A DNA stretch of 64,000 nt from assembly GCA_037200965.1 (NCBI GenBank), contig JBBCGK010000001.1, positions 128,001 to 192,000 of the forward strand, given 5' to 3'. Below, piece after piece: positions 22,590 through 54,283 of the stretch (within the stretch, counting starts at the first letter, position 1; each line of letters starts with the position of its first letter). The notes beneath the pieces are model-generated. The model ran no database searches, was not told the DNA's origin, and worked only from the letters and a program-made list of their open reading frames with translations. The position numbers and the translations under genes are program-made. Source of the stretch: a bacterium. Its GTDB lineage: Bacteria > Patescibacteriota > Minisyncoccia > Phycocordibacterales > Phycocordibacteraceae.

Positions 22590-22900
22590 TCCGCGGTAGC
22601 TCAATGGTAGAGCAGCTCCCTGTGGCAAACGCAGCTTCCAAAGGAAACTTTGGTCGAAGAACGAGGTGAATTCGGGGAACCCCGAGCGAGAAATCGCGGG
22701 CAATCCCGAGCCAAGTCCCGAATGTCGGGAAAGGTGTAGAGACTATCTCGCAAGAGAGTACTTGGAAAGACGGATTAATCTTTGTCTTTCCCGGGAAGCG
22801 CCTCGCACCCTTCGGGGTGATGATATAGTCCATCCCTGCCAGTAATGGAAGGAGCGATGTAAGGAGTTGGTTCCAGGTTCGAGTCCTGGCCGCGGAGCCA
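22590..22900 (+). tRNA. tRNA-Asn(GUU) interrupted by a group I intron
   Basis: Exon 1 (22590-22623): acceptor TCCGCGG, D-arm GCTC-AATGGTA-GAGC, anticodon stem GCTCC plus CUGU. Exon 2 (22860-22900): UAA-GGAGT, variable TGGTT, T-arm CCAGG-TTCGAGT-CCTGG, acceptor CCGCGGA, discriminator G, CCA. Spliced anticodon loop CUGUUAA gives anticodon GUU. Confidence 0.75.
22624..22859 (+). ncRNA. group I intron (~236 nt) in the tRNA anticodon loop
   Basis: 5' exon ends in U; intron ends in G. An IGS-like GCAG (22631-22634) can pair with exon CUGU, including a U-G wobble. Conserved core R-like GTAGAGACTA (~22735-22745) and S-like GATATAGTCC (~22822-22831). Confidence 0.7.
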
Positions 22901-24502
22901 GATAGGATTAACATCAGCGAAAGCTGGTGTTTTTCCTTTATTGACGGGCTTTTTTGGCGGTTCGAAAGTTCTTTTTTCGTCTGTTTTTTCTCCCATCATC
23001 TGCATGACACGGTCGGAGATGATTTTGAAGGCTTTATGGTATGAAATCTCCACTTTCTTGCCGTTTATCGTCGAGTTCGAAAATAACAGCGACATCAAAA
23101 GCTTCTTGTCGTCGACCATCTCGAGCGTGCTCCGGTTTACGTAAATCTTCCGCGCCTCCTTGGCCATCTGCAAGAAAGTCGATCCCATGTCGAAGTACTT
23201 GAGATTAGCGTTCTTGTGCTTATTGAGGCTATCCATCACTTCTTCCTGCTCGAGCTTGTACTGCGCGTACTTTTTCTGATAGAAGTCCTCGCTTATTTTG
23301 CCGTCGATCTTATCGTCATATATTTTGTCGAGCCGTTGCGTCGCCGTCTGATATCGTCGCTCCAGCTCGCCGGTTGCCTTTTCCCTGAATTCTATTTCCT
23401 CGCTATGGCTTTCCTTGAGTGCTTCCTGAACCCAGGTGAGCATATGCTCGATGGCCTCGTCATGCTTCGAGCTTAACTGCTCGATATTTTCCATCACTTG
23501 CTCGTCGACCTGCTCCTGCCGGACATATTCTTTCTGCGTGCAGTTTTTATAGTGATTGCAGTGGCCATACCAATGGCCTTTCTGTATCTCCCACGTTACG
23601 CGGCCCTTGCACTCCTCGCACCGAAACACGTTTTTGAAAAGCGAGTTGTGCTTGTTGTATCTCGGCGTGCCGTTGCTGTGCATGATGTCTTGGCACCGCA
23701 TGAATAATTCTTTGGTGATAAGCGGCTCATGTCCGCCCTGGGCGACTTTGCCGTTCCAGCGGTTCATGCCGTAGTAGAACGGATCGCCAAGAAGCTGATG
23801 CACGCGCGAGTGACTTACCTTGTTGCCTCCGCGCGAGCGCATGCCGAGCTTGTACATCTCATCGGCCAGTTTCTTGGTCGAGTGTATATTCGTGGCATAG
23901 AGTTCGAACATTCTTTTGACGATCGGTGCCTTATCCGGATCGAGCACGTGGATTTTGTGTCCCTTCTCGCCGACGGTTTTGTAGCCGAGCGGCGGCTTGC
24001 TCGGCAGCCAGCCTTGCGCGAGCTTTTCTTTCTGGCCTTTCTTCACGTTCTCGGAAAGGAGTCGGATGTAGTACTCGGCCGTGGCTACTTTGACGCGCCA
24101 CATAAACCACTCGTGCGACTTGGAGTCCTTGTGGAGCGTACAGCTCTCTTTGACGAGGTGGATGGTGTGCTTTTCATCGGCCAGTATCCACTCGTCGATG
24201 ACCGGCACGTCGGCAAAGTTGCGCGTGAGGCGGTCGGTCGTCTCGACGAAGATCGTGTTGATCTTCGTCTTGGTCACGTATTCGAGCATCTCGTGGAATA
24301 TCTTGCGCTGGATTTTGCCAGCCGCCGATTCCTGGATGGCGAATACCTTGACCATCTCGTAGCCGTTGCGATCGGCATAGTCGTGCAAGAGCTTTTCCTG
24401 CGCCGGAAGCGAGTAACCGGTATCCTCCTGATCCTTGGATGACACGCGGGCGTACCCCACGGCTCGCAATGGTTGATTTTCTTGATTCATTGTCATGGTC
24501 AT
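22775..24502 (-). CDS. large serine recombinase (phage/ICE-type integrase)
   Basis: AVGYARVSSKDQ catalytic Ser region, recombinase domain, Cys-rich zinc-ribbon (CEECKG...CNHYKNC), coiled-coil C-terminus. Track ORF starts at a GTG (24550); an ATG at 24502 is the more likely start. The 3' ~126 nt run antisense through tRNA exon 2 and the intron 3' end. Confidence 0.85.
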   Translation of the reverse strand: MTMTMNQENQPLRAVGYARVSSKDQEDTGYSLPAQEKLLHDYADRNGYEMVKVFAIQESAAGKIQRKIFHEMLEYVTKTKINTIFVETTDRLTRNFADVPVIDEWILADEKHTIHLVKESCTLHKDSKSHEWFMWRVKVATAEYYIRLLSENVKKGQKEKLAQGWLPSKPPLGYKTVGEKGHKIHVLDPDKAPIVKRMFELYATNIHSTKKLADEMYKLGMRSRGGNKVSHSRVHQLLGDPFYYGMNRWNGKVAQGGHEPLITKELFMRCQDIMHSNGTPRYNKHNSLFKNVFRCEECKGRVTWEIQKGHWYGHCNHYKNCTQKEYVRQEQVDEQVMENIEQLSSKHDEAIEHMLTWVQEALKESHSEEIEFREKATGELERRYQTATQRLDKIYDDKIDGKISEDFYQKKYAQYKLEQEEVMDSLNKHKNANLKYFDMGSTFLQMAKEARKIYVNRSTLEMVDDKKLLMSLLFSNSTINGKKVEISYHKAFKIISDRVMQMMGEKTDEKRTFEPPKKPVNKGKTPAFADVNPIWLRGQDSNLEPTPYIAPSITGRDGLYHHPEGCEALPGKDKD

Positions 24503-24546
24503 AATTGCTAATAATTTGTTGGTTCGAATTCGACGTTCGGTACCAG

Positions 24547-24596
24547 ACACACCATATGCCTATTCGTTTGCGCTGCTAAGCCCGAGTTACCCACAT
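24547..24596. repeat. copy A of an imperfect ~50-60-nt repeat (TATGCCTATTCG...AAGCC...GTTACCCACAT)
   Basis: Shares blocks CCTATGCCTATTCG and GTTACCCACAT with 35475..35534; same orientation; immediately upstream of the intact recombinase gene. Confidence 0.5.
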
Positions 24597-37200: not shown

Positions 37201-38028
37201 TTAGAAGGTTAGGTCTACTCCCCGTAGTTTTTTGTTCATCGTCTGCAGCGCATTCGGCTGAGCGTTGGGATTCTGCACGACCTGCGAACCGTCGAACACG
37301 GAAATATGTATCGAGTTGTCGGTATGCGTTTCGTCGACTAGGAGGCTGAAGTCGCCCTTGCCGTTGTGGTACGTTTCGCTGCCAGTGAGCTTTGATCCCG
37401 GCACGAGGACGAACGTACCCTGATCAAGCGTATAGGTATAGATGTCTTCGTAGCCGATATACAGCACAGTCTGTCTGCCGTTCGATGCAGGTTGTGGACG
37501 CTCAAATGGCAGGCGGTGAGCAGCATAACTCGCGGCATTTTGGAGGTAGGAGCTTTCGCCTGTCTGCGAGTCGATCAGCATATCGTAGTAGGTATGCGTA
37601 GGAACCGTGATCAATACATAGCGTTTGCCAATCGCTATCGGCCACGATTGCGAATAGTTGTCCCCGTGCCCGTTAGCGGCTGCTTTGGATGCCAAGATGT
37701 CGGCCACATCGTTCCTGATCTTTTCCTCCTGCGGAGTGAGAGACTTGCCGTCGTAGCTTCTGCTGTCGACAAAGTACGGCGTAATGCCCTGCAGATCCGT
37801 TTGTAGCTTAGTGAGCAATGCAGGATCGACCGCAGTTTTATCAACCACAATTGGTGCGGAAGTGTCAGTAGTTGAGGATGTAGAAGTCGAGGTGGAAGTG
37901 TTCGTGGTGGGCGCGTGCTTTTGAAACACGACGAGCATGGTGACGCCGATTGCTGCCACAATGATAATTATCGCCCCGACCGTTTTACTTATTGGAAATC
38001 GTGTGTTGTTCATATTTTGACGACGCAA
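37201..38028 (-). CDS. membrane-anchored hypothetical protein (paralog of 43483..44868 C-terminal domain)
   Basis: N-terminal TM plus Thr/Ser-rich linker. C-terminal ~150 aa share IGKRYVL...YIGYEDIYTYTLDQG...GSETYHNGKGD...ETHTDNSI...VFDGS...NPNA...LQTM with the other paralog. Confidence 0.55.
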   Translation of the reverse strand: MRRQNMNNTRFPISKTVGAIIIIVAAIGVTMLVVFQKHAPTTNTSTSTSTSSTTDTSAPIVVDKTAVDPALLTKLQTDLQGITPYFVDSRSYDGKSLTPQEEKIRNDVADILASKAAANGHGDNYSQSWPIAIGKRYVLITVPTHTYYDMLIDSQTGESSYLQNAASYAAHRLPFERPQPASNGRQTVLYIGYEDIYTYTLDQGTFVLVPGSKLTGSETYHNGKGDFSLLVDETHTDNSIHISVFDGSQVVQNPNAQPNALQTMNKKLRGVDLTF

Positions 38029-39329: not shown

Positions 39330-39647
39330 ATGCAAAACTGCATCATCATCCACGGCTGCCCCTCGAACGTCGAGAAGGCGATGAATCCCGAGACTCGGAC
39401 GCATGATAAGCATTGGATTCCATGGGTTAAGAACACGCTTACAAAATTCGGAATTCCGACCGAGGCTCCGCTCATGCCCGAACCGTGGGAGCCGTCATAC
39501 GAGAAATTCAAGGCAGAGTTGCGCCCGCTCCACTACCCTCTAATCGCGAGCCGCCTCTGCGGCAAGATGCCCAGCGAGCGTAGTGATGAAGGTCTTGAGA
39601 CTGGTGAGCTCGCTCATGTCCGAGTAGTCGCCGGTGTCCTTGGCTGA
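39330..39647 (+). pseudogene. truncated RBBP9/YdeN-like serine-hydrolase N-terminal fragment
   Basis: MQNCIIIHGCPS...HWIPWVKNTLTK... resembles the N-terminus of RBBP9/YdeN-family alpha/beta hydrolases. The nucleophile motif is absent or degenerate, and the frame runs into the convergent REase gene. Confidence 0.35.
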
Positions 39648-40274
39648 CTGCGGCGAGAGCATGATGCACGCCGACGTGTAAAGCTGTTCCTGCACGAGCT
39701 TTTTGCAGAGGATGTTGTAGCGATCGGCATAGGATGCGCCTTTGAATTCCGGAAGCAATGGGAAGTGCGGCGAATTATCCGTCACTGGCGAGCGCGAGCC
39801 CGGCGCGTCTTCGAGGAGCATGAGCCAGCCGACGAATGGCTTCGGTTGTTCCCCGAACGCTCCTTCCCGGTACGCGGTCCACAGGTCGTGCGCGGTCCCG
39901 ATTGCTTCTTCTATGCGATTATTGAAATTATTGCCGAACGAGCCGACCTGCGACTTGAATTCGAGCGCGGCGACGAGACGGCCTTCGCTGAGTATGAGGA
40001 AATCCCATTGCTTAGTTGGTCTGAAGAAGCCCGGTAGGGTGACGAGACGCCCGCTATGAATGACCGTCGCATCTGTAAGGCCATTTGCTTCGGCAAGATC
40101 TGCCATCAGCGTGGCGAAGCCATCCATGTTCTTACCCGCAGTGACTGCGCCGCGGGTTCCTTGGTCTACAGTTCCGGATTCCTCCTGTTGCCGGACCGCA
40201 ACACTGCGATTGCCCCAGAACAGTTCGACTGCCTGTTTAGCACGCTTCTCGTATTGCGCGAGGTCTATGGCCAT
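39540..40274 (-). CDS. type II restriction endonuclease, PD-(D/E)xK fold (possibly XhoI/PaeR7I-like)
   Basis: [20 protein letters not shown] gives D...E-x-K. Sits 5 nt downstream of a gamma-class N6A MTase in the same orientation. Confidence 0.5.
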
Positions 40275-40279
40275 ACGTT

Positions 40280-41986
40280 TTATGCCTTGATGGTAGCACG
40301 CTCGGATGGAGAGAGAGAAAACAAGGCGGATACGGCTTCGTCGCGGGCTTCAGAGTCATCACTGCCCGCTGCCGCGCGAAGCGCCTGCTGCAGATCCTTG
40401 GAGACATCGCTCCACCGCGGCAACCGGATACGCCGCAGATACTGTGCCTGAAACCGGAGACAGTTCCCGTGCATGCGCGTCGAGTAGGTCTCGATGAATA
40501 CGCGCGCGATGCCAGAGAGCAAGACGGCACGGAGCGCTTGAAGATCCCATTCGTCGGAGGTGATGTAGTAAAGATTGTGATGAGGATACAGCTTGCCCTC
40601 GTCGTAGACGATATGGGCATCGCCCTTGATATCTGGGATCAGGAGTTTCGGCTTCTGCACGAGCTCCGGATAGATACGGTCGATCGTGCGGTACCAAGCG
40701 CTCGGGTTCTTCTTGGAGACGTGCCGGTTCCTGATCGCCACTTCGTGCTGTCCGAGGTATGCGCGCAGCCGGGGATACTTCTCAAGCGAGACCGGCTTCC
40801 CGTCATTCCCGAATGGATTCACGACGCCCAGTCCGCGCCATGCTACCGTACCCGTCTGAATATCCTTGGTCATTACGAGCGGAAGTTTGCACTCGGCCTC
40901 GACATCGAGCGTATCGAAGGGCGCGATGAACACATCGTCTGCCCCCGTCGCAACGCCGATACCCACCTTGCATCCCGTTTCCTCCAGCGTTGGGAAATCA
41001 CTCTCAAGGCGGCGAATGAGCGCGAGTGTGTCCGACTCCTCAAGCGTCCATGGGTCGCCGCCGGTGATGGTCGTTACTTTTACGGACTCATGGTCGGCCA
41101 ATGCGCCTCGCACGAGCGCGCGGGCCAGATCCTCTAGCGCAGATGCCTCAATCTCCGGGCGCTTCGCCACATAGGTCGGACCGGCCGACTCGCGGGCGAT
41201 TACGGTGATTGCCGGATATGCGATCACTTCCGAATGGAAGGCTGGGGTACCGACCATGTCGACGTATGTCCGCATGTGGAATCGCTTCGCGACAAGTTCG
41301 CGGAGGGGACCTCCGTAGCGATTCTTCATCCAGCGGTCAGCGCAGATAAAACCGAGCGTGCCGCCCTCATCGAGGAGCTTCAGCGAGTATTCGATAAAAG
41401 GGATAAAAATATCTGCTCGATCGTAAATCGTCTCGTACCGGCGACGGTACTCGGCCATCAGCACATTGGGTACCATCTCTTGCCTGATGTACGGCGGATT
41501 TCCGACAACATGAGTAAAGGAGTGCCCGAATGGCGTGAGCAGGAAGTCGCCTTGGACGAGCCAAGCCCCAAGGATTTCTTCGCTTTGATCGATAGTTAGT
41601 CCGTTCTGGAGGAGAATCGCTCGCACTTCCTTCCTCGTCTTATCAAATGACCCCATGTGGAGCTCCACCCCGCGGATACTGTCTCTCAAGAGATCTGCAC
41701 TGGGCTTTATGTTCCTAGTCTTGAGCGAGGACATGAGCCGCTTCACCGCTGGTATGAGGAAATCTCCATGTCCGAACGACGGTTCGAGAAGACGTGCCGC
41801 GTACAGTTCATTGGAAGGCACATAACCGACGAGGTCGAGTATAAAATCCACCACTTCCGACCGCGTGAAAATGGCCCCGCGGTCGTCGGTTCCTGCTGCT
41901 GCAAACTCCTCTATGGCAGACGCGACTGGAGAAAGGCCGGGGAGGAATTCCTGCGCGAGCTGTCCTTTTAGCGTGCCAACTCTCAT
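40280..41986 (-). CDS. N6-adenine DNA methyltransferase, gamma class (Eco57I/TaqI-like)
   Basis: Motif [13 protein letters not shown]; N-terminal AdoMet region [11 protein letters not shown]. Start placed at MRVGTLKG (ATG 41986), preceded by an AT-rich stretch. Confidence 0.8.
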
Positions 41987-42143
41987 GTGTTTAATAATAC
42001 CATTCCCGGGAGTGAGAGAGCGATTTCGAGGTATTGAACCATTACGAAGGACTTGACACAAGTATCTACTTATGATAGAGTCTGTCCTGGTAGTAGATTC
42101 CATTCCGGCATCTCCCCAGCCACGAACCTTACAGGAGGCTTCC

Positions 42144-42485
42144 ATGGCACGTTCAATCATCCTCGAGTCCGACCCCGAAGCACGCGTTGGTTTCAACGCG
42201 CAGGAAGGAGCGGGACACGAGAAGACCGAATCCCGCGTCGTCATCGACATCAGCGGTTACAAGCTGGTGCATGACACGGAAACGGAAGGAGGCCTGCATG
42301 TCGTGCAGCTCTACCTCACCGTTCCTCAAATGGCACAGCTTGTGCGGATGTTTTTCTTGGAGATTGCTAAGGAAAACATCTACGCACAGCTCCTTCGTCG
42401 GCTCCTCCGGCAACGGTGGAAGGTCATGACGAATGGTGCCGCCAAGCACATGGGTTGGATGCCGCGATACGATCAAGGCGTCTGA
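42144..42485 (+). CDS. hypothetical protein
   Basis: AGGAGG RBS 6-7 nt upstream of the ATG at 42144; followed by a canonical terminator. Confidence 0.45.
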
Positions 42486-43482: not shown

Positions 43483-44868
43483 TTAAGGCAGGGATAGAGT
43501 GACTTGCCGTATCCTCTTGTACATCGTCTGCATCGCGTTTTCGGGCGCTTCCGGATTCCGGACGATCCGGGAGCTGTCGAACACGGTGAGAGTTATCGAA
43601 TTATCGGTATGCGTTTCTTCCGGATCGAGATAGGCATCAGCGCGCCCGGAATGATATGTTTCGCTTCCGTACAGCTTCGCGCGGAATACGGAGGAAAACG
43701 AACCGCGGTCGAGGCTATAGGTGTACACATCCTGGCTTCCGATATAGACCGCCATCTGCGCAGCGTCAGCCGGCCGGGCCTCCTCCAGGGGCGGATAGAT
43801 CGGCCGGTAGTTCGCGCCGTTCGGGATGGAGGTAGCGTGGCCGGTAGCGGAGTCTATGATCAGGTCATAACTGCTTTCCGCGCTTGGCTGCGAGACAAGC
43901 ACGTATCTCGTTCCTATCGCCCGCAGCCGGAGCCGGGAATAATACTCCGCATTATCGGGTTCCCTTGAGACGAACAGGGCGACGATATCGCTTTTAATCT
44001 TTTCTTCCTGCGGGGTAAGGCGGACATCGGCAAACCCTTTGCCCGCGATAAAATGGGGAACGACTCCCTTCAAGTCGTTTTGCAGCGGAGCGAGCGCCTC
44101 GCGGGAAACCGTCGCTCCTGGGACGAACCTGAACGATTCCGCCATCTTCTCCGCAACCGCATTCCCGAGCGGATAATGGATCATCAATTTGGTCCCGATG
44201 TCGTTTTCCACGAAGATAAATCTATGGACTGCCCCTTCCGGTTCCAACATGTATCCTTCGCCTACCCCCAGAAAGCTTTTTGTGAGGGTAAAGGAATACG
44301 CCTGTCGCCCCGCGAATGTCGTTTCCACGAGATCTCCCACCCGCTTGCCGAAGGCCGCACCATCCCCATCATTCACCTGGTCTTCGCGGATTGTCTCCGC
44401 GAACTCGCGCAACGGGAGCGCGACGCGGTCGGCCTGTGTCTTGTTCGCCTCAGGAATCTCGTTGGTAAAGGGAAGTTCGGCGCTTATCCAGAATATGATC
44501 GGGTGGCCGACTCCCGGGAAGCTCATAACCGCCTCGTCCGATTCCTCGACGGGGATGGTTTCCACCAGGGCAATATAGGAAACATCCATATCCGCGGGAT
44601 GCGAGACTTCATAGCCATGGACCGCATTAACGTATGCCTGCCAGTCCGCCGGAATCTTCGCGGACCGGTATTCCCAGGCGGCAAATACTCCGGCCGTGAT
44701 GATTAGGAAAACCGCCAGACCGATAACCCAGACGTGATGATTCCGTACATATTCGCGCGCGGTCATATATACGCACGATATCATGATGGTCTGGAATAGA
44801 CGCATGGCCTGACAAACAATGCCGTCCGTGGCACTATGCGGGAGGAAAGCTACGGAATAGAAAGGCAA
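43483..44868 (-). CDS. membrane-anchored hypothetical protein (paralog of 37201..38028)
   Basis: N-terminal TM; C-terminal domain shares a motif series with the 37201..38028 product. Confidence 0.55.
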   Translation of the reverse strand: MPFYSVAFLPHSATDGIVCQAMRLFQTIMISCVYMTAREYVRNHHVWVIGLAVFLIITAGVFAAWEYRSAKIPADWQAYVNAVHGYEVSHPADMDVSYIALVETIPVEESDEAVMSFPGVGHPIIFWISAELPFTNEIPEANKTQADRVALPLREFAETIREDQVNDGDGAAFGKRVGDLVETTFAGRQAYSFTLTKSFLGVGEGYMLEPEGAVHRFIFVENDIGTKLMIHYPLGNAVAEKMAESFRFVPGATVSREALAPLQNDLKGVVPHFIAGKGFADVRLTPQEEKIKSDIVALFVSREPDNAEYYSRLRLRAIGTRYVLVSQPSAESSYDLIIDSATGHATSIPNGANYRPIYPPLEEARPADAAQMAVYIGSQDVYTYSLDRGSFSSVFRAKLYGSETYHSGRADAYLDPEETHTDNSITLTVFDSSRIVRNPEAPENAMQTMYKRIRQVTLSLP

Positions 44869-46395: not shown

Positions 46396-46734
46396 CTATA
46401 GCCACCGACTTACGCCGCCATGATGCGAGCAGGTGCCAGAACGATGCTGGCTGAAACTGTAGGTGCCGTCACGGCACTTCGCGGATGCTCCGGCGGGGGC
46501 GGAGTCGGAATAAGCAGGAGAGTGAACGCGGTTGCCGTCAACGTTGGTGTAGTAAGTATCGTTCGAGAGACTGGAAACTCCCTGCACGGCAGCGGCAGGT
46601 GCGGGAAACGAAGCCTGCGGCGAAGGGGAGGGGGAAGAAAAACCCGCGCTGCCCAGAGCGAGAGCGGCGACAACGCCTACCGGGATGAGGTAGCGCTTTT
46701 TCTTATACCAAGGGCGGTCTGATGCCGGTTCCAT
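46396..46734 (-). CDS. DUF3761-family secreted protein
   Basis: TM/signal, then YYTNVDGNRVHSP...AKCRDGTYSFSQHRSGTCSHHGGVSRW. Confidence 0.55.
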   Translation of the reverse strand: MEPASDRPWYKKKRYLIPVGVVAALALGSAGFSSPSPSPQASFPAPAAAVQGVSSLSNDTYYTNVDGNRVHSPAYSDSAPAGASAKCRDGTYSFSQHRSGTCSHHGGVSRWL

Positions 46735-46815
46735 GGCCGAACCCTACGCTTATAAGGCCGGAATGCAACTGCCCGGCGGTGAATCCCCACCCTAATCGCA
46801 ACAAAGTTTGCAGGC

Positions 46816-47803
46816 TAATTGCAACAGCTCTTTTGGGTTCCACACTCTCTGGATATGGCACATACCCAGATTGGGCCAGGAGACTGGCCGGTGATTGCCC
46901 GCATGCTGCGGGCAGGACACGCGATCCGAGAGATCGCACGTACGCTTGAGAAGGATGCAGGATCGATCTCTCGTCATGTGAACGAATACGGCGGACGTGA
47001 GGGATATGATGTACGCGAAGTACGCAGAAAGAAGAAGCTGAAACGCATTGCTGCAATGGACAGTATTCGCGTGCTCAAGGGTGCGCTCTTGCGCACGGTG
47101 GTGCGTATGCTCAAAGACCACCACTCTCCTGAGCAAATTGAAGGGGTGACGGGTGCAGTCTCCGCCAGCACCATATACCGATATATTGAGGAGCGTGCTC
47201 CGCACCTGAAGCAGTTCCTCAGATCATCCAAAGGCAAATACCGTCGCAGGCGCGGTACCAAAATACGCGAGAAGGCTCGTGAAGCGGCCAAGAAGCAGCG
47301 TATTGATGACCGTCCAACGATTATTGAACGACGAAGCCGGCTCGGCGACTGGGAGGGCGATACGGTGCAAGGCAGCGACAAGCGAGTCCGCATTGTCACC
47401 TTTGTGGATCGCAGGAGCGGATACCTGGTTGCATACTTGTTGCCCAAGATGCGCGCCGAGCTCCTCACGTCGCTTGCGCTCGCACGCTTCCGTCATATTC
47501 CGCGTGCCAAACGCAAGACCATCACGCTCGACAACGGTCCAGAATTTGCCGACTGGAAGCGACTCGGGAAGAAGAGCGGGGCAACCGTGTACTTCGCATA
47601 CCCGCACCGTCCTTGGGAGCGTGGTACCAACGAGAATACCAACGGACTCCTGCGTCAGTACTTTCCTCGTTCGCTCAACTTCAACCTGATCACCCCTGAG
47701 GAGCTGGCGCATGTGGTGAAGAAGCTCAATGACCGGCCGCGCAAGCGTCTGAAATTCGAATCACCGCGCTCGATATTTCTGAGGAAGTGAGTGTTGCAGT
47801 TAG
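46816..47803 (+). mobile_element. IS30-family insertion sequence (~1 kb)
   Basis: Transposase flanked by imperfect inverted repeats: AATTGCAACAGCTC at ~46817-46830 and GAGTGTTGCAGTT at ~47790-47802. Confidence 0.6.
46855..47790 (+). CDS. IS30-family DDE transposase
   Basis: N-terminal HTH; DDE region (WEGDTV...DNGPEF...NENTNGLLRQYFPR) typical of IS30. Confidence 0.8.
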   Translation: MAHTQIGPGDWPVIARMLRAGHAIREIARTLEKDAGSISRHVNEYGGREGYDVREVRRKKKLKRIAAMDSIRVLKGALLRTVVRMLKDHHSPEQIEGVTGAVSASTIYRYIEERAPHLKQFLRSSKGKYRRRRGTKIREKAREAAKKQRIDDRPTIIERRSRLGDWEGDTVQGSDKRVRIVTFVDRRSGYLVAYLLPKMRAELLTSLALARFRHIPRAKRKTITLDNGPEFADWKRLGKKSGATVYFAYPHRPWERGTNENTNGLLRQYFPRSLNFNLITPEELAHVVKKLNDRPRKRLKFESPRSIFLRK

Positions 47804-47925
47804 AGTGGGGTTCAGGCGGCAGTCGATTGACATAATCCGATATGTAGTCCAAAGTCTCGCATGGAAGAGCCCGTGTTCGCGATAACGCGGACACGTCTTG
47901 AAAACAACCAAGAAGGAAGAAGCTG

Positions 47926-49281
47926 ATGGAAAACACGATACTCTATTTCCTGCCCTCACGGGTCGCGAAGAGCATCCCCGATCTCGGAGATGACGTCACG
48001 CTCGGCCCTGAAATGATCTTCAAGGCCGATGACGGATTCTTCGTGCGCGGACACGTGCTCGGTGGTCCCGCAAGCGGCATTCTCAGGCTGCTTCGGGAAG
48101 CCGATCTCACGTCCTGCGGCTCAAGCGCCGCAGACGGCGCACCCGTCGTTATCGTCTCGCGCAAAGCGGACGAAAACGATATCCTCATCACGCATCATCA
48201 GACCGGCGAAAACACGCCGGAGTCGGAACTCTACCCGGTGCTGCTTAACAGCTCCAGAGACGCGCTCATGCGCTTCGCCGCCTATACGGGGCTCGTTCCC
48301 CGGATGCACTTCAGGGCGACGCGCGTTTGCGAACCGTTCGCCGAAGGCGACGATTCCACGATCCACTTCATCGTCGGCGCAAGCCCGCCGGGAGCGATAT
48401 CCGAGCTCGACCGCCGGGACCTGTGCGGCGTGCGTCTGCATCCAAGCGGCCTGTACCGGACTACGAACGGCCCGACGCACGGGCGGGGCTTCCTCATCAA
48501 GGACGAACACGACCAGTTGTGCGCGCAAGTGCTAGACCGGAACGTGTTCCTCTTTACGCCGCGCCTTACTCTCGAGACGTCGGCGCTGTTTTCTTCCGAA
48601 GGGGGCGACCTCCTTCTGAAGATACTCCGCCTTGTTTCGAAGGCCTTGGCCGAAGACCGGAAAGCCGAGACTGAGATATCTCTCGATTCGGCCGAGGCAT
48701 ATGGACAACACGCCTTCGCCAGCATGATCGCCAGCAATAAAGACGTTCTCGCGGCTATCAAGAATGCCGAGAGCGAGATCGAACGGTTACGTACCAGGTA
48801 TCATGAAGCGCTCGCGACACATCGGCACTACATCGCCACCCTTGCGATGGGGAGCGCCATTCTTGAAGGCATGGTGCAGGAAAATGCGGAAAGCGACTGG
48901 AAACGGCTTTCGTCCAATCCGCTCGTCGAGGGGCTATCTGTCCTTGACGGGGCGCTTCATGTGCGGACGAAACCGATTATCGGCATACACGAAGGGCGCC
49001 GCTATGACTATGGGCCCTTCATGATCCGAATGCACTTCCGAGGAACAATCTCGATCTGGGCGCTCGCGCCCACGCATCCCCGCAAACTCCATCACCCGCA
49101 TATCTCGGAACGGAGTTCGCCGTGCTTCGGGAACGCGGGACTGTATATCGAGGAAGCCCTCGAATCGTTTCGGGTCGCCGATGCGCTCGAGCTCGTGCTC
49201 GAGTGGCTCGTGTCCGGGTATGATCCGGCGCTGGCAAGCGTAAAGATCGAAGAGTGGCCTCTCTATCAGGAGGCCGCGTGA
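47926..49281 (+). CDS. protein with C-terminal E2/UBC-like domain (HPH-x7-C motif) and ~340-aa N-terminal region of unknown function
   Basis: LHHPHISERSSPCFGNAGLY matches the HPN-x7-Cys active-site spacing of UBC folds. Following LVLEWLVSGYDPALA resembles the UBC helix-2/PNPDDP region. Stop overlaps the E1 start (TGATG). Confidence 0.5.
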   Translation: MENTILYFLPSRVAKSIPDLGDDVTLGPEMIFKADDGFFVRGHVLGGPASGILRLLREADLTSCGSSAADGAPVVIVSRKADENDILITHHQTGENTPESELYPVLLNSSRDALMRFAAYTGLVPRMHFRATRVCEPFAEGDDSTIHFIVGASPPGAISELDRRDLCGVRLHPSGLYRTTNGPTHGRGFLIKDEHDQLCAQVLDRNVFLFTPRLTLETSALFSSEGGDLLLKILRLVSKALAEDRKAETEISLDSAEAYGQHAFASMIASNKDVLAAIKNAESEIERLRTRYHEALATHRHYIATLAMGSAILEGMVQENAESDWKRLSSNPLVEGLSVLDGALHVRTKPIIGIHEGRRYDYGPFMIRMHFRGTISIWALAPTHPRKLHHPHISERSSPCFGNAGLYIEEALESFRVADALELVLEWLVSGYDPALASVKIEEWPLYQEAA

Positions 49282-49934
49282 TGGGCGCGCTCAATCATTC
49301 GCACCAAGTCAGAATCTTCGATCCGGCCAATGCCCGCAAGACCGTCGTCTTCGGCGTCGGTGCGGTAGGCAGCTGGCTTGTCGAATTTCTCGTCCGGATG
49401 GGCGTGAAGGATATCGAGGTCTGGGACGATGACTTTGTCGCCTCGGACAACCTGCCGTATTCGCGGTACCTGCCGAAGCACCTCCAGATGTATAAAGTGG
49501 ATGCGCTCCGGCAGATACTGGCCGAACTCGGCGTGGAGCTTGCCGTACACCGGGAGCGCTACGTCGGGCAGGTGGAATACCGCAACGTCTCGGTCGTCTC
49601 GTGCGTTGACGACATGATCCCGCGAAACACTATCTGGGACATGGTGAAGCGGCAGAGGATCTCGATCGATCTCTTCTGCGACACCCGTATGGCAGGGGCG
49701 TACGTTGAAGCCTTTGCCATCGCGCCGTGCGATCCGAAGGATGTGCGGCGATACGAAGCAATGCTGTTCCCGAACGAGGAAGCAATTCTTCAAGCGTGCG
49801 GGAATCACAACATCGCCTACGCAGCAAGCCGTGCGGCCGGGATTGTGGCGGCAAACCTGACACAGTTCTGGTCTCACGGCACGAAAGAGTGGCTCCGCCG
49901 CGAGCGTTGTGATACGCTCAAAGTGGTCCCGTAA
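49281..49934 (+). CDS. E1-like ThiF/MoeB-family adenylyltransferase (minimal, 217 aa)
   Basis: Rossmann motif VVFGVGAVGSWLVEFLVRMGV...DDDFVASDNL; AGGAGG RBS upstream. Confidence 0.7.
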   Translation: MGALNHSHQVRIFDPANARKTVVFGVGAVGSWLVEFLVRMGVKDIEVWDDDFVASDNLPYSRYLPKHLQMYKVDALRQILAELGVELAVHRERYVGQVEYRNVSVVSCVDDMIPRNTIWDMVKRQRISIDLFCDTRMAGAYVEAFAIAPCDPKDVRRYEAMLFPNEEAILQACGNHNIAYAASRAAGIVAANLTQFWSHGTKEWLRRERCDTLKVVP

Positions 49935-49967
49935 CCATCAGCCGCCAAACGAGAAGGAGATATTCTC

Positions 49968-50198
49968 ATGGCAAACACCACCGTGACCGTCAAGGTCACT
50001 CCCGCCGGGGGAGATGCCTCGGAACAGTCCGTCGAAATCGAAGCGACCGGCGCACCCGTCAGTGCGGTTCTGGAGAAGGCGGGCATCAAGTACGACCCGA
50101 CCCAGCAGATCATGGTCGACGGCGAGCCGGCCGATCAGCGCACCCACGTTCCGGCAGGCGGCGTGGTATCCATGACCGAAAAGGTGCGCGGTTCCTAA
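49968..50198 (+). CDS. small beta-grasp (ThiS/MoaD/ubiquitin-like) protein ending ...VRGS
   Basis: 76 aa; pattern TVKV...VSAVLEKAGI...QIMVDGEPAD...VPAGGVVSMTEKVRGS resembles ThiS/MoaD but has a single Gly before the terminal Ser. Confidence 0.5.
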   Translation: MANTTVTVKVTPAGGDASEQSVEIEATGAPVSAVLEKAGIKYDPTQQIMVDGEPADQRTHVPAGGVVSMTEKVRGS

Positions 50199-50225
50199 AC
50201 ACTTCGCGCTCAGTGCAAGACAAGG

Positions 50226-50262
50226 CCGTCCGGTAACCCCGGGCGGCCTTTTGCTTTTTATT
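50226..50262 (+). terminator. rho-independent terminator after the Ubl gene
   Basis: GGCCGTCCGG-TAAC-CCCGGGCGGCC followed by TTTTGCTTTTTATT. Confidence 0.65.
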
Positions 50263-50296
50263 GCATATACAGAAAGCACGATATCATCCGGAAGAT

Positions 50297-51460
50297 ATGC
50301 TCCGCGTTCTCATCGCCGACTATAAAAACGCCGATATCTCGGCAGAGATACCCTACCTGTTCAAGAAGGCGGGCTGCGAGGTCGATGTGTATTGCAGAAA
50401 AGGTTCCTGGCTTTTAAAGAACCGCTCATGGGACAGGTGGCACGAGGCAGCGAGCGACCCTGCCGAATATGCAAAGGGCCTTATAGCCCGAGTTGAGAAC
50501 GCCTCGTACGACTGGATTATCCTTACGGACGACCCGGTGCTGAGGATCATGAACGACAGGATCGGCGACGATTCGGCGGCACTCAAGATATTGCCCGTTG
50601 CAAAGCTTGCGAACAGGAATGTGATCGGCTCGAAAGCCGCACTTTCGCTTCTCTGCGAGAAATACCAACTCCGAACTCCTCCGTTCGCGATATATAACGA
50701 GGGAGACGATCTGTCCGCCCTCACGGCAACGGTCGGGTATCCGCTCCTTCTTAAGGTCGACCGGAGCGGCGGCGGGAGCGGCGTATTCCGCTGTATCGAT
50801 GAATCCAAGCTCGCGGAAACACTCCGCCTCCTCGCTCCCGATCAGAGAAAGAATCTCGTATTCCAGAAATACATCGAAGGAGACAACATCGGCGTCGACG
50901 CGCTGTACCGAAAAGGAACGCTGCTCGCCTATGCCCGCTCGAAGGTCGTGCGAACGGTGACGGACGAATTCAGCATTTCTTCGGTGCGTTCGTACGCGCC
51001 GGATGAAACCATCGAACCCGAACTGCGGCGCATAGGGGAAGAGATCGGGATCGACGGCTTTTGTAATTTCACGTTCATGCAGGAGGGAAGGACGGGAACG
51101 TACTACCTCATCGAAGCCGACCTGCGCCCGCACGCCTGGTTCTCCCTCGCGCGCCTCGGCGGCGTCGACTTCTCACTTGCCATACGCAACTACTTGTCCG
51201 GTTCAAATACGCTTATAGGGCAGCCTTGCGCGGCGGAAGTCGAGATCCGGCACTTCTTCAGGGATTTCAATTGGTCGGTCGAGCGGGGGGACTGGCGCGG
51301 CATTCTCATGTGGATCTTCAATAGAGACGGCCGATGGAAATTCGTTCCGCTTCATGACCGGCGGATCTTTTTTGCGACGCTGGGGCAGCTTGCCAGGAAC
51401 CGCCTGCGAAGCCTGCACCGCCTCCTACATGTATCCTTCATGAAGCGCCTGCTAGGGTAG
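50297..51460 (+). CDS. ATP-grasp domain protein
   Basis: GYPLLLKVDRSGGGSGVFRC and downstream E/D-rich Mg-binding region. Start chosen at MLRVLIAD (the track ORF begins 36 nt earlier). Confidence 0.65.
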   Translation: MLRVLIADYKNADISAEIPYLFKKAGCEVDVYCRKGSWLLKNRSWDRWHEAASDPAEYAKGLIARVENASYDWIILTDDPVLRIMNDRIGDDSAALKILPVAKLANRNVIGSKAALSLLCEKYQLRTPPFAIYNEGDDLSALTATVGYPLLLKVDRSGGGSGVFRCIDESKLAETLRLLAPDQRKNLVFQKYIEGDNIGVDALYRKGTLLAYARSKVVRTVTDEFSISSVRSYAPDETIEPELRRIGEEIGIDGFCNFTFMQEGRTGTYYLIEADLRPHAWFSLARLGGVDFSLAIRNYLSGSNTLIGQPCAAEVEIRHFFRDFNWSVERGDWRGILMWIFNRDGRWKFVPLHDRRIFFATLGQLARNRLRSLHRLLHVSFMKRLLG

Positions 51461-51490
51461 GGAAGCAAGGTTTTATAATACTTAATCATC

Positions 51491-52261
51491 ATGCCGGAAT
51501 TCGAGCAGCTCGCGAAGAACGTCGCGCATGAGGCGGGGGCCGTGATGCTGAGGCATTTCGGCCTCAGTGTCGCGCATACGTTCAAGGCCGACCGCAGCCC
51601 CCTTACCCGAGCCGATCGCGAGATAAACGACCTGGTCCTGAAGCGCATCGGCGAGGCGTACCCGGAGCACAGCCTGATCGGAGAAGAAGGAAGCCGAATT
51701 ACCGGAAGCGAGTTCTCCTGGATATTCGATCCCGTGGACGGCACGCAGAACTTCCTGCGCGGGGTGCCGGTAAACGTGTTTTCGATCGCGCTCGCGAAAG
51801 ACGGGAAGCCGATCCTCGGCGTCGTCTATGATCCGCACCAGAAGCGGCTCTATCGGGCAACAAAAGGAGGCGGCGCGTACCTTAACGACGAACCGATCAG
51901 GACCGCTTCCCACACTGAACTCGCCGGAAGCTTCATAGAAGCGGACGGCTTGCGCGAATTCAAGGACATGAATTTCATCGAAACGCTCACGAAAGAAAAA
52001 GCGCGTTTCCTTTCATACGGATCGACCACGTACGCGCAGATGCTCGTCGCGAGCGGGCAGATCGACGCGGCCATCTTCCCGCTTCCGGGACGCCCCTGGG
52101 ACTCGGCGGCGGCGAAGATAATCGTCGAGGAGGCGGGCGGTATCGTCACCGATCTGCAAGGAAAAGAGCAGCGCTACGACATGAATATCGGCGGTACCGT
52201 TTCGGCGGGGAACCGGGAACTCCACGAACGATTGCTTCGCGTTGTTGCGGGTTCGCTCTGA
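51491..52261 (+). CDS. inositol monophosphatase family protein (SuhB-like)
   Basis: LIGEE and WIFDPVDGTQNF motifs. Confidence 0.8.
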   Translation: MPEFEQLAKNVAHEAGAVMLRHFGLSVAHTFKADRSPLTRADREINDLVLKRIGEAYPEHSLIGEEGSRITGSEFSWIFDPVDGTQNFLRGVPVNVFSIALAKDGKPILGVVYDPHQKRLYRATKGGGAYLNDEPIRTASHTELAGSFIEADGLREFKDMNFIETLTKEKARFLSYGSTTYAQMLVASGQIDAAIFPLPGRPWDSAAAKIIVEEAGGIVTDLQGKEQRYDMNIGGTVSAGNRELHERLLRVVAGSL

Positions 52262-52279
52262 TGGGGCTATAAGAGCTGC

Positions 52280-54283
52280 ATGAGAAACGACTTCGCCATA
52301 CTGTACGGAAAGCGGTGGTGGGCGGCAGCCGCGCTTTTTCTCTCGTATGCGGCGGCGCTCCTGTTTCTGGATCCCACGACCTCCGGCCCCGGCGCGCTTT
52401 CTCCGGTATCGGGAATCGCGATCAGCATCCTGTTCTTCGAAGGAGGGGCTTTGTGGCCGATCATCTATATCGCGGCGTTTGCGGCAGGAGTACTGCAGGG
52501 CTGGCCCGCCCTGACCCTTCTTTTCCTCCCCGCCGCATTCGCGCTTGAGGCACTCCTTGCCGCGGCGCTTCTCCAGAAAGCGGAGATCGATCCGCTCTTC
52601 AGGAGCAAGCGGGACGTCCTCTGGCTTTTCGCCACGATCGCGCTCGTTTCCTGCATCGTCCCCTCGGTCGAAGGGCTCCTCGCGCTGCCCGCCTTTACCC
52701 ACCACGGGTACTGGATAGTCTCGCCGCTTGCGTCCTGGGCGCTTTCGTACGCCGGTACCGCGTGTTCGCTCGCGCTCATCACGCCCTTCGTGCTCAGGTG
52801 GCTCGCGAAGCCCCGCTTCAGCCGGCCGTGGCGGGAAATGATCGAAACTGTCGCTGCGCTCCTGCTCCTCGTCGGCATATCGGCGGCGGCGTTCCTCTTC
52901 GGTTTCGATACCGCTGGCGGCGTACCGCTCGCGTATTTCCTTCTCATACCACTCTCGTGGCTCGCGCTTCGCATGCGGCCGCGGTTCGTGAGCCTGGCGC
53001 TTCTCTTCGTTGCGGTATTCGCGCTTTCGGGCACGTTCGCTGGCACTTCGGGCACGACCCTCCTTACGACCGAACTCTTCCTCACGGCCCTCTCGGGCGT
53101 CTTTCTCGTCATAGCGGCGCTTGAGGAAGAACGCCGCCTCCACTCGAACCTGACGCGCTCGCAGGTCGCGACGCTTGAGAACGTCGTCGCCCGCGTCTCG
53201 TCGGAATCGAGGGCGAAGAACGACTTCATCGCCGTGCTCGCGCACGAACTCCGCAATCCGCTCGCTCCGATCCAGAGCGGCATCGATCTCCTCAAGCTCA
53301 CGAGCAAGGGCAGCGACGAACAGGAAACCCTTTCCATGATGGACGGAAGGATGGCGACCATCCGGCGGCTGCTCGACGACTTGCTCGACGTCTCGCGCAT
53401 CTCGGAAGGAAAGATGAGCGTGAAGAAGGAGCGGGTCGACCTTGGCGCGATCATCCGCAGGGCGACCCTTTCGACCGCGCATTATTTCGACGAGCGGCAC
53501 CAGACGCTCACCATAGCCCTTCCGGCGGAACGGCTCAGCATCGAGGGAGATCCGGTCCGCCTCGAGCAGATCTTCTCGAACCTCTTTACGAACGCGTCCA
53601 AATACTCAAGGAGCGGAGGCACCATTTCGATAACCCTGTCGCTTCTCAATAACGAGGCGGAAATACGCGTGGTCGACGACGGGATCGGCATCGAGAAGCA
53701 CGAGCTTGAGGCGATCTTCACGCCCTTCCACCAGGCGAACCAGGGCGTGCGGAGCCGCATGGGCCTTGGCATCGGCCTCGCGCTCGTGCGCAGCCTCGCC
53801 GAGATGCATGGCGGCAGCGTGGCCGCACGAAGCGACGGGCGCGGAAAAGGAAGCACGTTCGTCGTGCGCCTTCCCCTTGACCAGGCGCTTGCTTCAGAGG
53901 CACCGCAAAAGGACGCGCCGTCCAAGCGGGACATACGCGTGCTCGTCGTTGACGATAACGACGCTGCCGCGTGGGGTATCGGGAAAGTGCTCGAGATGCG
54001 CGGCGCGGCCGTCGACTATGCCTATGACGGAAAGCAGGCGCTTGAGAAAGTCGCAAGCCTTCCCCCGCGGGCCATCCTCCTTGATATCGGGCTTCCGGGC
54101 GAAGACGGCTATGCGATCGGGAAGAAACTCCGGTCCGGGGGCTTCGTCGGCAAGCTTATCGCCCTTATCGGCTACGGCGAAAGCGAAGACCGCCGCCGGG
54201 GCAGGGAGGCCGGATTCAACGAATACCTGGTGAAGCCCGCGGGCCTTGAGGATTTGAAGCGGGTAATCCCTGAATTAGGATAA
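52280..54283 (+). CDS. hybrid sensor histidine kinase (multi-TM sensor, HisKA, HATPase_c, C-terminal receiver)
   Basis: H-box FIAVLAHELRNPLAPI; N/G boxes (NLFTNASKYS, DDGIGI, GLGIGLALVRS); receiver VLVVDDNDAA...LLDIGLPGEDGY. Confidence 0.85.
   Translation: MRNDFAILYGKRWWAAAALFLSYAAALLFLDPTTSGPGALSPVSGIAISILFFEGGALWPIIYIAAFAAGVLQGWPALTLLFLPAAFALEALLAAALLQKAEIDPLFRSKRDVLWLFATIALVSCIVPSVEGLLALPAFTHHGYWIVSPLASWALSYAGTACSLALITPFVLRWLAKPRFSRPWREMIETVAALLLLVGISAAAFLFGFDTAGGVPLAYFLLIPLSWLALRMRPRFVSLALLFVAVFALSGTFAGTSGTTLLTTELFLTALSGVFLVIAALEEERRLHSNLTRSQVATLENVVARVSSESRAKNDFIAVLAHELRNPLAPIQSGIDLLKLTSKGSDEQETLSMMDGRMATIRRLLDDLLDVSRISEGKMSVKKERVDLGAIIRRATLSTAHYFDERHQTLTIALPAERLSIEGDPVRLEQIFSNLFTNASKYSRSGGTISITLSLLNNEAEIRVVDDGIGIEKHELEAIFTPFHQANQGVRSRMGLGIGLALVRSLAEMHGGSVAARSDGRGKGSTFVVRLPLDQALASEAPQKDAPSKRDIRVLVVDDNDAAAWGIGKVLEMRGAAVDYAYDGKQALEKVASLPPRAILLDIGLPGEDGYAIGKKLRSGGFVGKLIALIGYGESEDRRRGREAGFNEYLVKPAGLEDLKRVIPELG

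Follow-up and report, generated by a model that had tools for sequence, protein, structure and literature searches.

Ubiquitination-like systems of bacteria, namely Cap2 of CBASS (cyclic oligonucleotide-based antiphage signaling), Bil and Bub, were characterised recently, and all of them include a peptidase, use glycine-terminated tags and occur in defence contexts. Mature tags end with Gly in those bacterial pathways that have been characterised, a JAB peptidase exposing this residue if required, and all characterised E1 enzymes carry their nucleophile either on the crossover loop or in an inserted domain (PMC11601596). For the E2 enzymes of Bil, it has been proposed that they pick their targets without an E3 (PMC11601596). 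Here, we analysed a stretch of 64,000 nt from the Patescibacteria contig JBBCGK010000001.1 (the window), which contains a cassette of three genes encoding an E2-like protein, a small ThiF-family E1 and a beta-grasp ubiquitin-like protein (Ubl). We interpret the cassette as a self-contained conjugation unit, in which the Ubl would be passed along an ATP-driven relay of Cys thioesters without an E3 and without a peptidase, and we assign this interpretation a probability of roughly 60%. It is carried by the structure of the operon, by the families and folds to which the proteins were assigned, by the invariance of their proposed catalytic residues and by the linkage of the three genes across genomes.

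Organisation of the cassette and fold of the E2-like protein

The three genes were found on the forward strand as stated in a preliminary description of this DNA (Table 1). The TGA stop codon of the E2-like gene (49279-49281) and the ATG of the E1 gene (49281) share one base, which is the TGATG overlap noticed at first. We take this ATG as the most likely E1 start instead of GTG 49254, from which the gene had originally been read, because the Shine-Dalgarno sequence caggagg precedes it and because gene callers used 49281 on the identical contig of a near-identical genome copy. The Ubl gene begins 33 nt after the E1 stop codon, has the Shine-Dalgarno sequence aaggag, and ends with the codons GGT TCC TAA, that is, Gly-Ser-stop (Gly-Ser codons at 50190-50195). 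A stem at 50222-50250 followed by a T-run was the best terminator-like site within the 6 kb scanned (46500-52500) and closes the three-gene unit; a strong terminator had been placed here before, at 50226-50262. The sequence shows the three genes to be co-transcribed and translationally coupled.

The C-terminal domain of the E2-like protein (residues 330-445) is built like a UBC fold, with a helix at its N-terminus, then an antiparallel beta-meander, and helices at its C-terminus. In an AlphaFold2 (AF2) model calculated from 111 homologues (predicted local distance difference test, pLDDT, of 93.2), this unit is composed of strands at residues 334-379, a loop bearing the HPH motif and Cys400, and two helices, whereas a model from six sequences (pLDDT 59) was too poor for use. 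Aligning the profile of residues 318-451 with four human E2s by hhalign resulted in a probability of 77% and a score of 35.3, whereas 30 column-shuffled controls averaged 11.2 and reached 18.2 at most, and the reversed profile scored 10.2. The register brought together the helix, the G-x-Y-x-G-G-x-F strand region, HPH with HPN, and Cys400 with the catalytic Cys; HPH-x7-C thereby lies on HPN-x7-C of the four human E2s, with the Cys about 7-8 residues after the HPN-type motif, as in E2s. H390, H392, C400 and G402 are the sole invariant columns among the 111 homologues, whose mean column identity is 19%, and for this reason the HPH-x7-Cys motif, initially spotted in a single protein, is far beyond chance. 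From the model and the alignments, we take the domain to be a UBC fold with a plausible active site, the fold that the preliminary description had suspected for this region.

The remainder of the protein starts with a variable alpha/beta domain (about residues 1-95 in the AF2 model), continues with a conserved, beta-rich middle domain (about residues 100-245) containing the near-invariant PPG 154-156, GRG 186-188 and Q201, and leads through a single helix of 74 residues in the model (256-329) to the UBC-like domain. The first ~100 residues are the variable part of the protein and fall outside the family-profile match in 92 of 137 full-length members. The N-terminal region had been described as having no recognisable domain, and indeed Pfam gave no match and hhalign was silent. 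A second E2/RWD or a Ubl fold in the N-terminal or middle domain was rejected, as hhalign against E2s, against the protein's own C-terminal domain and against the Ubl gave no signal. The order of secondary structures (beta-beta-alpha-beta-beta in the first domain, a helix and then a beta-meander with the PPG loop in the second) offers a hint only.

The E2-like protein as a whole had no match in Pfam, NCBIfam, PADLOC or PHROGs. The curated E2 models (Pfam UQ_con and Prok-E2_A-E, and the NCBIfam E2 models) matched neither the window protein nor 90 family members at E <= 1, and Pfam returned nothing but stray coiled-coil matches for these 90 members. Matches of BRCC36 (JAMM) to profile positions 36-134 had E-values of 0.5-1.6, which we regarded as noise, and none of the 90 members had a match to a JAB model. 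In a Foldseek search of BFVD, four unnamed phage proteins of 474-1146 aa (A0A6J5NL39, A0A516LAI7, A0A516LW79 and A0A516KZW4) matched the E2-like model with E-values of 7e-5 to 4e-4 and a probability of 1.0 at a high root-mean-square deviation. We did not build on these matches because no sequence relative of the E2-like protein was found in IMG/VR contigs, GenBank phages or plasmids.

The E1, the Ubl and the proposed relay

The E1 matched Pfam ThiF (PF00899) at 46.6 bits, above the gathering score of 28.1, and its GVGAVGS Rossmann motif is in place, which bears out the early assignment to a minimal ThiF-type E1. The NCBIfam equivalogs (ThiF, MoeB, TcdA, SAMP E1, PRTRC ThiF and 6A-MBL Cap2-like) scored 3- to 20-fold under their cutoffs; the best of them was the ThiF model NF006395 (E 4e-13, 49.5 bits against a cutoff of 159). 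The Rossmann segment of about 70 residues matched the PADLOC models of Cap2 (E1-E2) with an E-value of 1e-10. A six-sequence E1 profile searched against the PDB found Tcd1, UBA5 (E 1e-8), ThiF, PaaA (5e-8), MccB (4e-7), UBA3, Uba4, Cap2, MoeB and BubCD (3.9e-4). The second-best solved relative (E 6e-9) is a 'THIF-type NAD/FAD binding fold domain-containing protein' of 264-265 aa with seven chains per entry (9egb, 9egc and 9egd), for which we found no paper in the literature searched.

With E. coli ThiF, hhalign aligned 153 columns of the E1 at a probability of 95.8%. G25, G27, D49, K72, D110, R115, D134, R136, Y158, C173, G174 and H176 are invariant in 15 E1 homologues. They include the nucleotide-binding Asp and Lys (D49 and K72) and the Mg/ATP Asp, D110, which aligns with the Asp of the ThiF motif CTDNM. 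C173, in a CGxH motif, stands opposite C184 of ThiF on the crossover loop, where a nucleophile is expected (a Cys in UBA5, ThiF, MoeB and Atg7), and the invariant Tyr158 is in the crossover region as well.

The profile matches to MccB and PaaA could suggest that the E1 modifies the terminal Ser of the Ubl, for example by nucleotidylation or cyclisation, and that the product is a modified protein or a released small molecule. MccB and PaaA are ThiF-family enzymes acting on residues other than Gly. Consistent with such an activity, the terminal residue of the Ubl is invariantly Ser, and the invariant D134 and R136 (D134-T135-R136) stand where ThiF has A-S-A near the adenylation site. However, the substrate is a folded beta-grasp protein, as in a typical E1-Ubl pair, and not a short peptide; the 217-aa E1 is without a peptide-clamp N-domain, and the E2-fold partner with its invariant Cys would be left unexplained. 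We regard a modification of this kind as highly improbable.

The small third protein is predicted at the profile level to be beta-grasp, as had been proposed, because its profile matched SAMP2 (5lda_B, E 6.3e-5) and the ThiS/MoaD-like protein PF1061 (1rws, E 8.6e-5). One homologue additionally gave a weak match to PF21965 (SAMP2). The most unusual feature of the cassette is the end of this protein. The terminal Ser is present in 16 of 16 complete homologues, preceded by the single Gly remarked upon earlier in 15 of them and by another Ser in one, and the tail usually follows the pattern E-R-P-x-G-S.

The resemblance of the Ubl profile to ThiS and SAMP-type carriers would also fit a sulfur carrier of the ThiS, MoaD, CysO or TtuB type, which would be adenylated and thiocarboxylated and from which a cofactor, tRNA or metabolite would receive its sulfur, with the E2-like protein as an accessory relay through Cys400. 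The ThiF models among the best NCBIfam matches of the E1, despite scores under the cutoff (NF006395), and the alignment of C173 with C184, the acyl-disulfide Cys of ThiF, point in the same direction. On the other hand, the Ubl has no Gly-Gly end, the equivalog scores are far under their cutoffs, the E1 sequence contains no CxxC zinc motifs, of which ThiF and MoeB carry two, and the strictly linked partner has an E2 fold. Sulfur-carrier contexts, which the preliminary description had considered for homologous loci, were not seen: ThiG, ThiH, MoaE, CysM, TtuA, rhodanese and cysteine desulfurase were all missing from the 17 gene neighbourhoods described below. A sulfur carrier is thus very unlikely as an explanation of the mechanism, and sulfur transfer is unlikely as the role of the cassette.

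We propose the following relay for the cassette. The E1, presumably a homodimer like ThiF, MoeB and UBA5, would bind ATP and adenylate the C-terminal carboxylate of the Ubl, as its family membership suggests. The invariant Cys173 of the crossover loop would take the Ubl as a thioester, like Cys250 of UBA5, a step suggested by the alignment with Cys184 of ThiF. The Ubl would then be handed to the invariant Cys400 of the UBC-like domain, to judge from the fold match and the active-site alignment. More speculatively, the E2-like protein might transfer the Ubl to the target without an E3, following the proposal made for Bil E2s; its long helix might help it to dimerise or extend its reach, and the choice of target might fall to the variable N-terminal domain and the conserved middle domain.

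Several observations weigh against this relay. The encoded end of the Ubl is Gly-Ser, where a Gly, usually a Gly-Gly, would be expected, and we know of no characterised Ubl E1 that activates a C-terminal Ser. The E1 does not have the Arg of the ATP-phosphate motif S-N-L-x-R-Q; the site reads S-x-N-x-P-x-S, with Tyr, Met or another residue at the position of the Arg, for which the family-specific invariant R136 might compensate. The cassette contains neither a deconjugating enzyme nor an E3. As for the E2-like protein, Foldseek of its model against the PDB found nothing under an E-value of 1e-3, and UbcH7 reached a probability of only 0.75; the human E2 and E. coli ThiF reference sequences for hhalign were typed by hand; and about 330 residues are without an assignable function. 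Moreover, the Asn of HPN is replaced by His and the further near-invariant His384 is nearby, for which reason a His/Cys hydrolase-like or metal site may exist around Cys400.

Such a site could mean that the UBC-like domain acts as a hydrolase or transpeptidase of the Cys/His kind, instead of being a passive thioester carrier or in addition to it, with C400, together with H390, H392 and H384, attacking the Gly75-Ser76 bond. A hydrolase would cut off the Ser cap in the way of Atg4 or a JAB peptidase, so that the E1 finds an exposed Gly, whereas a transpeptidase would form the acyl-enzyme directly and, much like a sortase, hand the Ubl on to an amine of the target. Arrangements such as H-x-H and Cys-His are characteristic of hydrolases, and three invariant or near-invariant His surround the invariant Cys here, one of them in place of the E2 Asn; the Ubl also carries an invariant extra Ser, yet no peptidase is present in the cassette. 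Nevertheless, the fold and the motif register fit E2s and not known Cys-peptidase folds, a removable cap would not require an invariant Ser, and the strict retention of the E1 with its crossover-loop Cys argues for an ATP-driven relay. We consider a hydrolase or transpeptidase unlikely and continue with the thioester relay.

Because the cassette has no peptidase, the terminal Ser is either the residue that becomes activated, or it is taken off, be it by the system itself or by an enzyme whose gene lies elsewhere. In the first case, the E1 would activate a Ser terminus, and D134-T135-R136 in place of the A-S-A of ThiF is perhaps involved. Alternatively, an unlinked enzyme may cut off the Ser, or the E2-like protein may do so with its His/Cys site, or the Gly-Ser bond itself may be put to chemical use.

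Distribution, gene neighbourhood and other features of the window

An exhaustive profile search for the E2-like family resulted in 2,394 representatives at 50% identity (E <= 1e-3), 181 of which had E <= 1e-30. A word-indexed protein search found only 6 relatives (4 with the deep alignment as query), and the family is therefore visible only by exhaustive profile search. The locus was also searched with a restrictive peptide pattern, and the 6 genomes found in this way are not a prevalence estimate. The named members of the E2-like family come from Candidatus Uhrbacteria and from metagenome-assembled genomes (MAGs) labelled 'Patescibacteria group', and the E2-like protein of the window is identical to a hypothetical protein in a MAG labelled 'bacterium'. 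Three GTDB loci are assigned to uncultured Gammaproteobacteria MAGs, by label only.

The order of E2-like, ThiF and small protein genes is kept in 17 independent loci, mostly labelled Patescibacteria, in which the trio overlaps or is tightly spaced. All-against-all BLAST of the flanking genes revealed no other gene common to the 17 loci. The flanking genes checked by Pfam in these loci included no JAB, as the preliminary description had found for the window, no DUF6527 or other peptidase, no CD-NTase, no defence regulator and no sulfur-pathway enzyme. The flanks are housekeeping genes and vary by locus (aldolase, MraZ, rpsB, GAPDH/PGK, MreB, AddA-like, dCTP deaminase, FtsEX, RF2, IF3-L35-L20, LexA/DinB, ParAB, TopA and RelA), and the genomic position of the cassette differs between genomes.

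The preliminary description had also pointed to the link of bacterial E1/E2/Ubl operons (Bil/Bub type) with phage defence. In this alternative, which concerns the role and is compatible with the thioester relay, the cassette would be an anti-phage system of the Bil, Bub or CBASS Cap2 kind and would conjugate the Ubl to a phage protein on infection. The characterised bacterial E1/E2/Ubl operons are defence systems (PMC11601596), the position of the cassette varies between genomes, the E2-like protein begins with a hypervariable domain, and the stretch in the window looks accessory, with an IS30 element and, 6-8 kb upstream of the cassette, a XhoI-type restriction-modification (R-M) pair. However, PADLOC has no match for the E2-like protein or the Ubl, none of the 17 loci showed a defence-island context, and the flanks of the other loci are the housekeeping genes listed above. 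Furthermore, no CapW/CapH-CapP-type regulator, effector or peptidase is present, and relatives were found neither on plasmids nor in phages or viral contigs. The data did not support such a link, and we consider a defence role possible but doubtful.

The role of the cassette could lie in regulation or quality control, through a tag typical of the Patescibacteria lineage, or in defence. As a more far-reaching idea, which we put forward tentatively and would not expect to hold in full, the cassette might be a lineage-typical, vertically maintained tagging system of Patescibacteria and the simplest complete E1-E2-Ubl cascade known, needing neither an E3 nor a peptidase, with a chemistry at the end of the tag unlike that of every characterised Ubl pathway. 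The Gly-Ser end would either be activated as a Ser-terminated adenylate and thioester, or undergo an N-to-O acyl shift or transpeptidation releasing serine, and the HPH/His384 site would assist Cys400.

The gene of an IS30-family transposase precedes the cassette, as first reported, although it ends 135 nt upstream and not 110 nt. The IS30 is a single copy in the window, and a repeat search detected no terminal repeats. It stands beside the cassette only in the window genome and the near-identical copy, and not in other genomes; because of this confinement, the adjacency is without significance and incidental to the cassette. The identical contig breaks at the IS30, which suggests that the insertion sequence is multi-copy in that genome. 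On the other side, beyond the terminator, an ATP-grasp gene is followed by a gene for an inositol monophosphatase and one for a MASE1 hybrid histidine kinase. Its start is most likely ATG 50297 and not TTG 50261, as had been assumed; the TTG falls inside the T-tract of the terminator, and the call on the identical contig is 387 aa. We rejected the ATP-grasp gene as a member of the cassette since no other locus has a homologue; it is incidental, in keeping with the early remark that it may be independent.

Table 1. Features of the window, with the cassette listed first.
Feature	Position	Strand	Details
E2-like gene	47926-49281	+	451 aa
Putative E2 active site HPHISERSSPC	49093-49125	+	H390-P391-H392, x7, C400; translation
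E1 gene (ThiF family)	49281-49934	+	217 aa; start chosen by Shine-Dalgarno sequence and gene call
E1 Rossmann motif GVGAVGS	49353-49373	+	translation
E1 crossover-loop C173-G-x-H176	49797-49808	+	CGNH; translation
Ubl gene (beta-grasp)	49968-50198	+	76 aa; ends E-K-V-R-G75-S76-stop
Intrinsic-terminator-like hairpin and T-tract	50222-50260	+	12-bp stem, 9 G-C pairs, 5-nt loop; scan and sequence
IS30-family transposase	46819-47790	+	rve and HTH_38; Pfam
ATP-grasp gene	50297-51460	+	387 aa; weak CPSase_L_D2, ATP-grasp, ATPgrasp_Ter and RimK matches
Type II R-M pair	39540-42250	-	XhoI-family endonuclease (PF04555, E 1e-88); Eco57I/TaqI_C-type N6-adenine methylase
Group I intron	22608-22852	+	Rfam RF00028, 64 bits, gathering level, full-length model
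Large serine recombinase	22775-24550	-	591 aa
Direct repeat pair	37217-37335 and 43502-43620		119 nt, 72% identity, 6.3 kb apart

Three further features of the window lie apart from the cassette (Table 1). One is the type II R-M pair mentioned above. Another is a group I intron, part of which coincides with the 3' end of the open reading frame for a large serine recombinase on the opposite strand. No tRNA or rRNA genes were detected anywhere in the window, and the intron host might be an intron-split tRNA missed by ARAGORN. The third is a pair of direct repeats, which may reflect chance or shared coding sequence; at the settings used, no other repeat family was found in the window.

Relation to known Ubl systems

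Bub (6E/DUF6527; BubAB, BubCD/BubBD and BubE) shares with the cassette a minimal, homodimer-type E1 without an inserted Cys domain and a non-canonical E2. An invariant Tyr also occurs in the crossover region of both E1s, Y158 in the cassette and Y370 in BubCD. Bub, however, works with Tyr/Ser oxyesters, has no catalytic cysteines and contains the serine protease BubE, often with a JAB fusion, whereas the cassette has kept the invariant C173 of the E1 and C400 of the E2-like protein and has no linked protease. Moreover, BubCD was only a weak profile match of the cassette E1 (E 3.9e-4).

In the UBA5/UFC1/UFM1 system, UFC1 is an E2 without the canonical HPN motif, and UfSP proteases process UFM1 so that it ends with Gly. 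The system is eukaryotic and needs an E3 complex, and its homology to the cassette is at the superfamily level. UBA5, among the best PDB profile matches of the cassette E1, is likewise a minimal E1 with the catalytic Cys on the crossover loop (PMC12355090). The archaeal system SAMP/UbaA and the bacterial systems ThiS-ThiF, MoaD-MoeB and TtuB-TtuC resemble the cassette in pairing a beta-grasp protein with a ThiF-type E1, and among solved proteins SAMP2 and PF1061 are the best relatives of the Ubl profile. These systems have Gly-Gly ends, sulfur links and no E2, while the cassette has a Gly-Ser end, an obligatory E2-fold partner and no sulfur neighbour; the SAMP-activating E1 model scored 20.8 bits on the cassette E1 against a cutoff of 450.

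CBASS type II (Cap2/Cap3) has E1 and E2 domains in common with the cassette. Cap2, however, is an E2-E1 fusion that comes with a JAB protein (Cap3) and a CD-NTase substrate, whereas the genes of the cassette are separate and no locus contains a CD-NTase or JAB. The operon types 6a-6d all include a JAB protein, and types 6a-6e all have JAB or other partners and different fusions (Iyer et al. 2006); none of them has the architecture of the cassette. The PRTRC model TIGR03736 scored 24.6 bits on the cassette E1 against a cutoff of 144.75, and the E2-like protein and the Ubl had no PRTRC matches.

The closest phage relatives of the cassette E1 are ThiF-family proteins of crAss-like phages (phrog_15670), which are similarly small, match over nearly the full length (E 1.5e-11) and also do not have the Arg of NLxRQ; 44 phage records were found, and a profile comparison gave an E-value of 2e-28. 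In Dulem virus 41 (PP511520.1, 2224-6226), the phage ThiF gene stands directly after those of a Prok-JAB and two unannotated proteins in a replication module. These unannotated neighbours were rejected as homologues of the E2-like protein or the Ubl, as hhalign gave no support. By eye only, and without that support, the neighbour of 227 aa starts with a Ubl-like stretch ending KKVSSG, and the one of 373 aa has HSHCHG...CCLG.

The cassette would add a fourth family to the characterised bacterial ubiquitination-like systems, one that is large (2,394 or more clusters at 50% identity), pared down to a bare core of E1, E2 and Ubl and concentrated in the Candidate Phyla Radiation (CPR), whose reduced genomes keep few accessory systems. 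It offers a minimal model of E1-to-E2 transfer and of E3-independent target choice, a way to find out if E1 enzymes are able to activate a terminus other than glycine, namely Ser, and a handle on post-translational regulation in almost entirely uncultured organisms. Should it prove to be a defence system, Ubl-based immunity would extend to CPR bacteria. We found no description of the E2-like family or of a ubiquitin-like system of CPR bacteria in the literature searched, and the cassette matches no described operon type, in line with the early suggestion of an undescribed variant.

Of the known systems, the cassette works most like Bil, while its E1 most closely resembles UBA5 and ThiF, the minimal E1s of the crossover-loop type. 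Bil and the cassette both keep Ubl, E2 and E1 as separate genes of a single operon and have no E3, and the Cys thioester chemistry of Bil (PMC11601596) is also the one proposed for the cassette. Bil, however, consists of the Ubl BilA, the E2 BilB, the JAB protein BilC and the multidomain E1 BilD (IAD-AAD-CYS), as opposed to the single-domain E1 of the cassette, which is not accompanied by a JAB protein. The cassette further differs from Bil by the crossover-loop Cys of its E1, a Ubl ending with Gly-Ser, an E2 domain terminal in a multidomain protein, and the position of both the E2-like protein and the Ubl outside the PADLOC models. Overall, the cassette fails the defining features of every known family with which we compared it.

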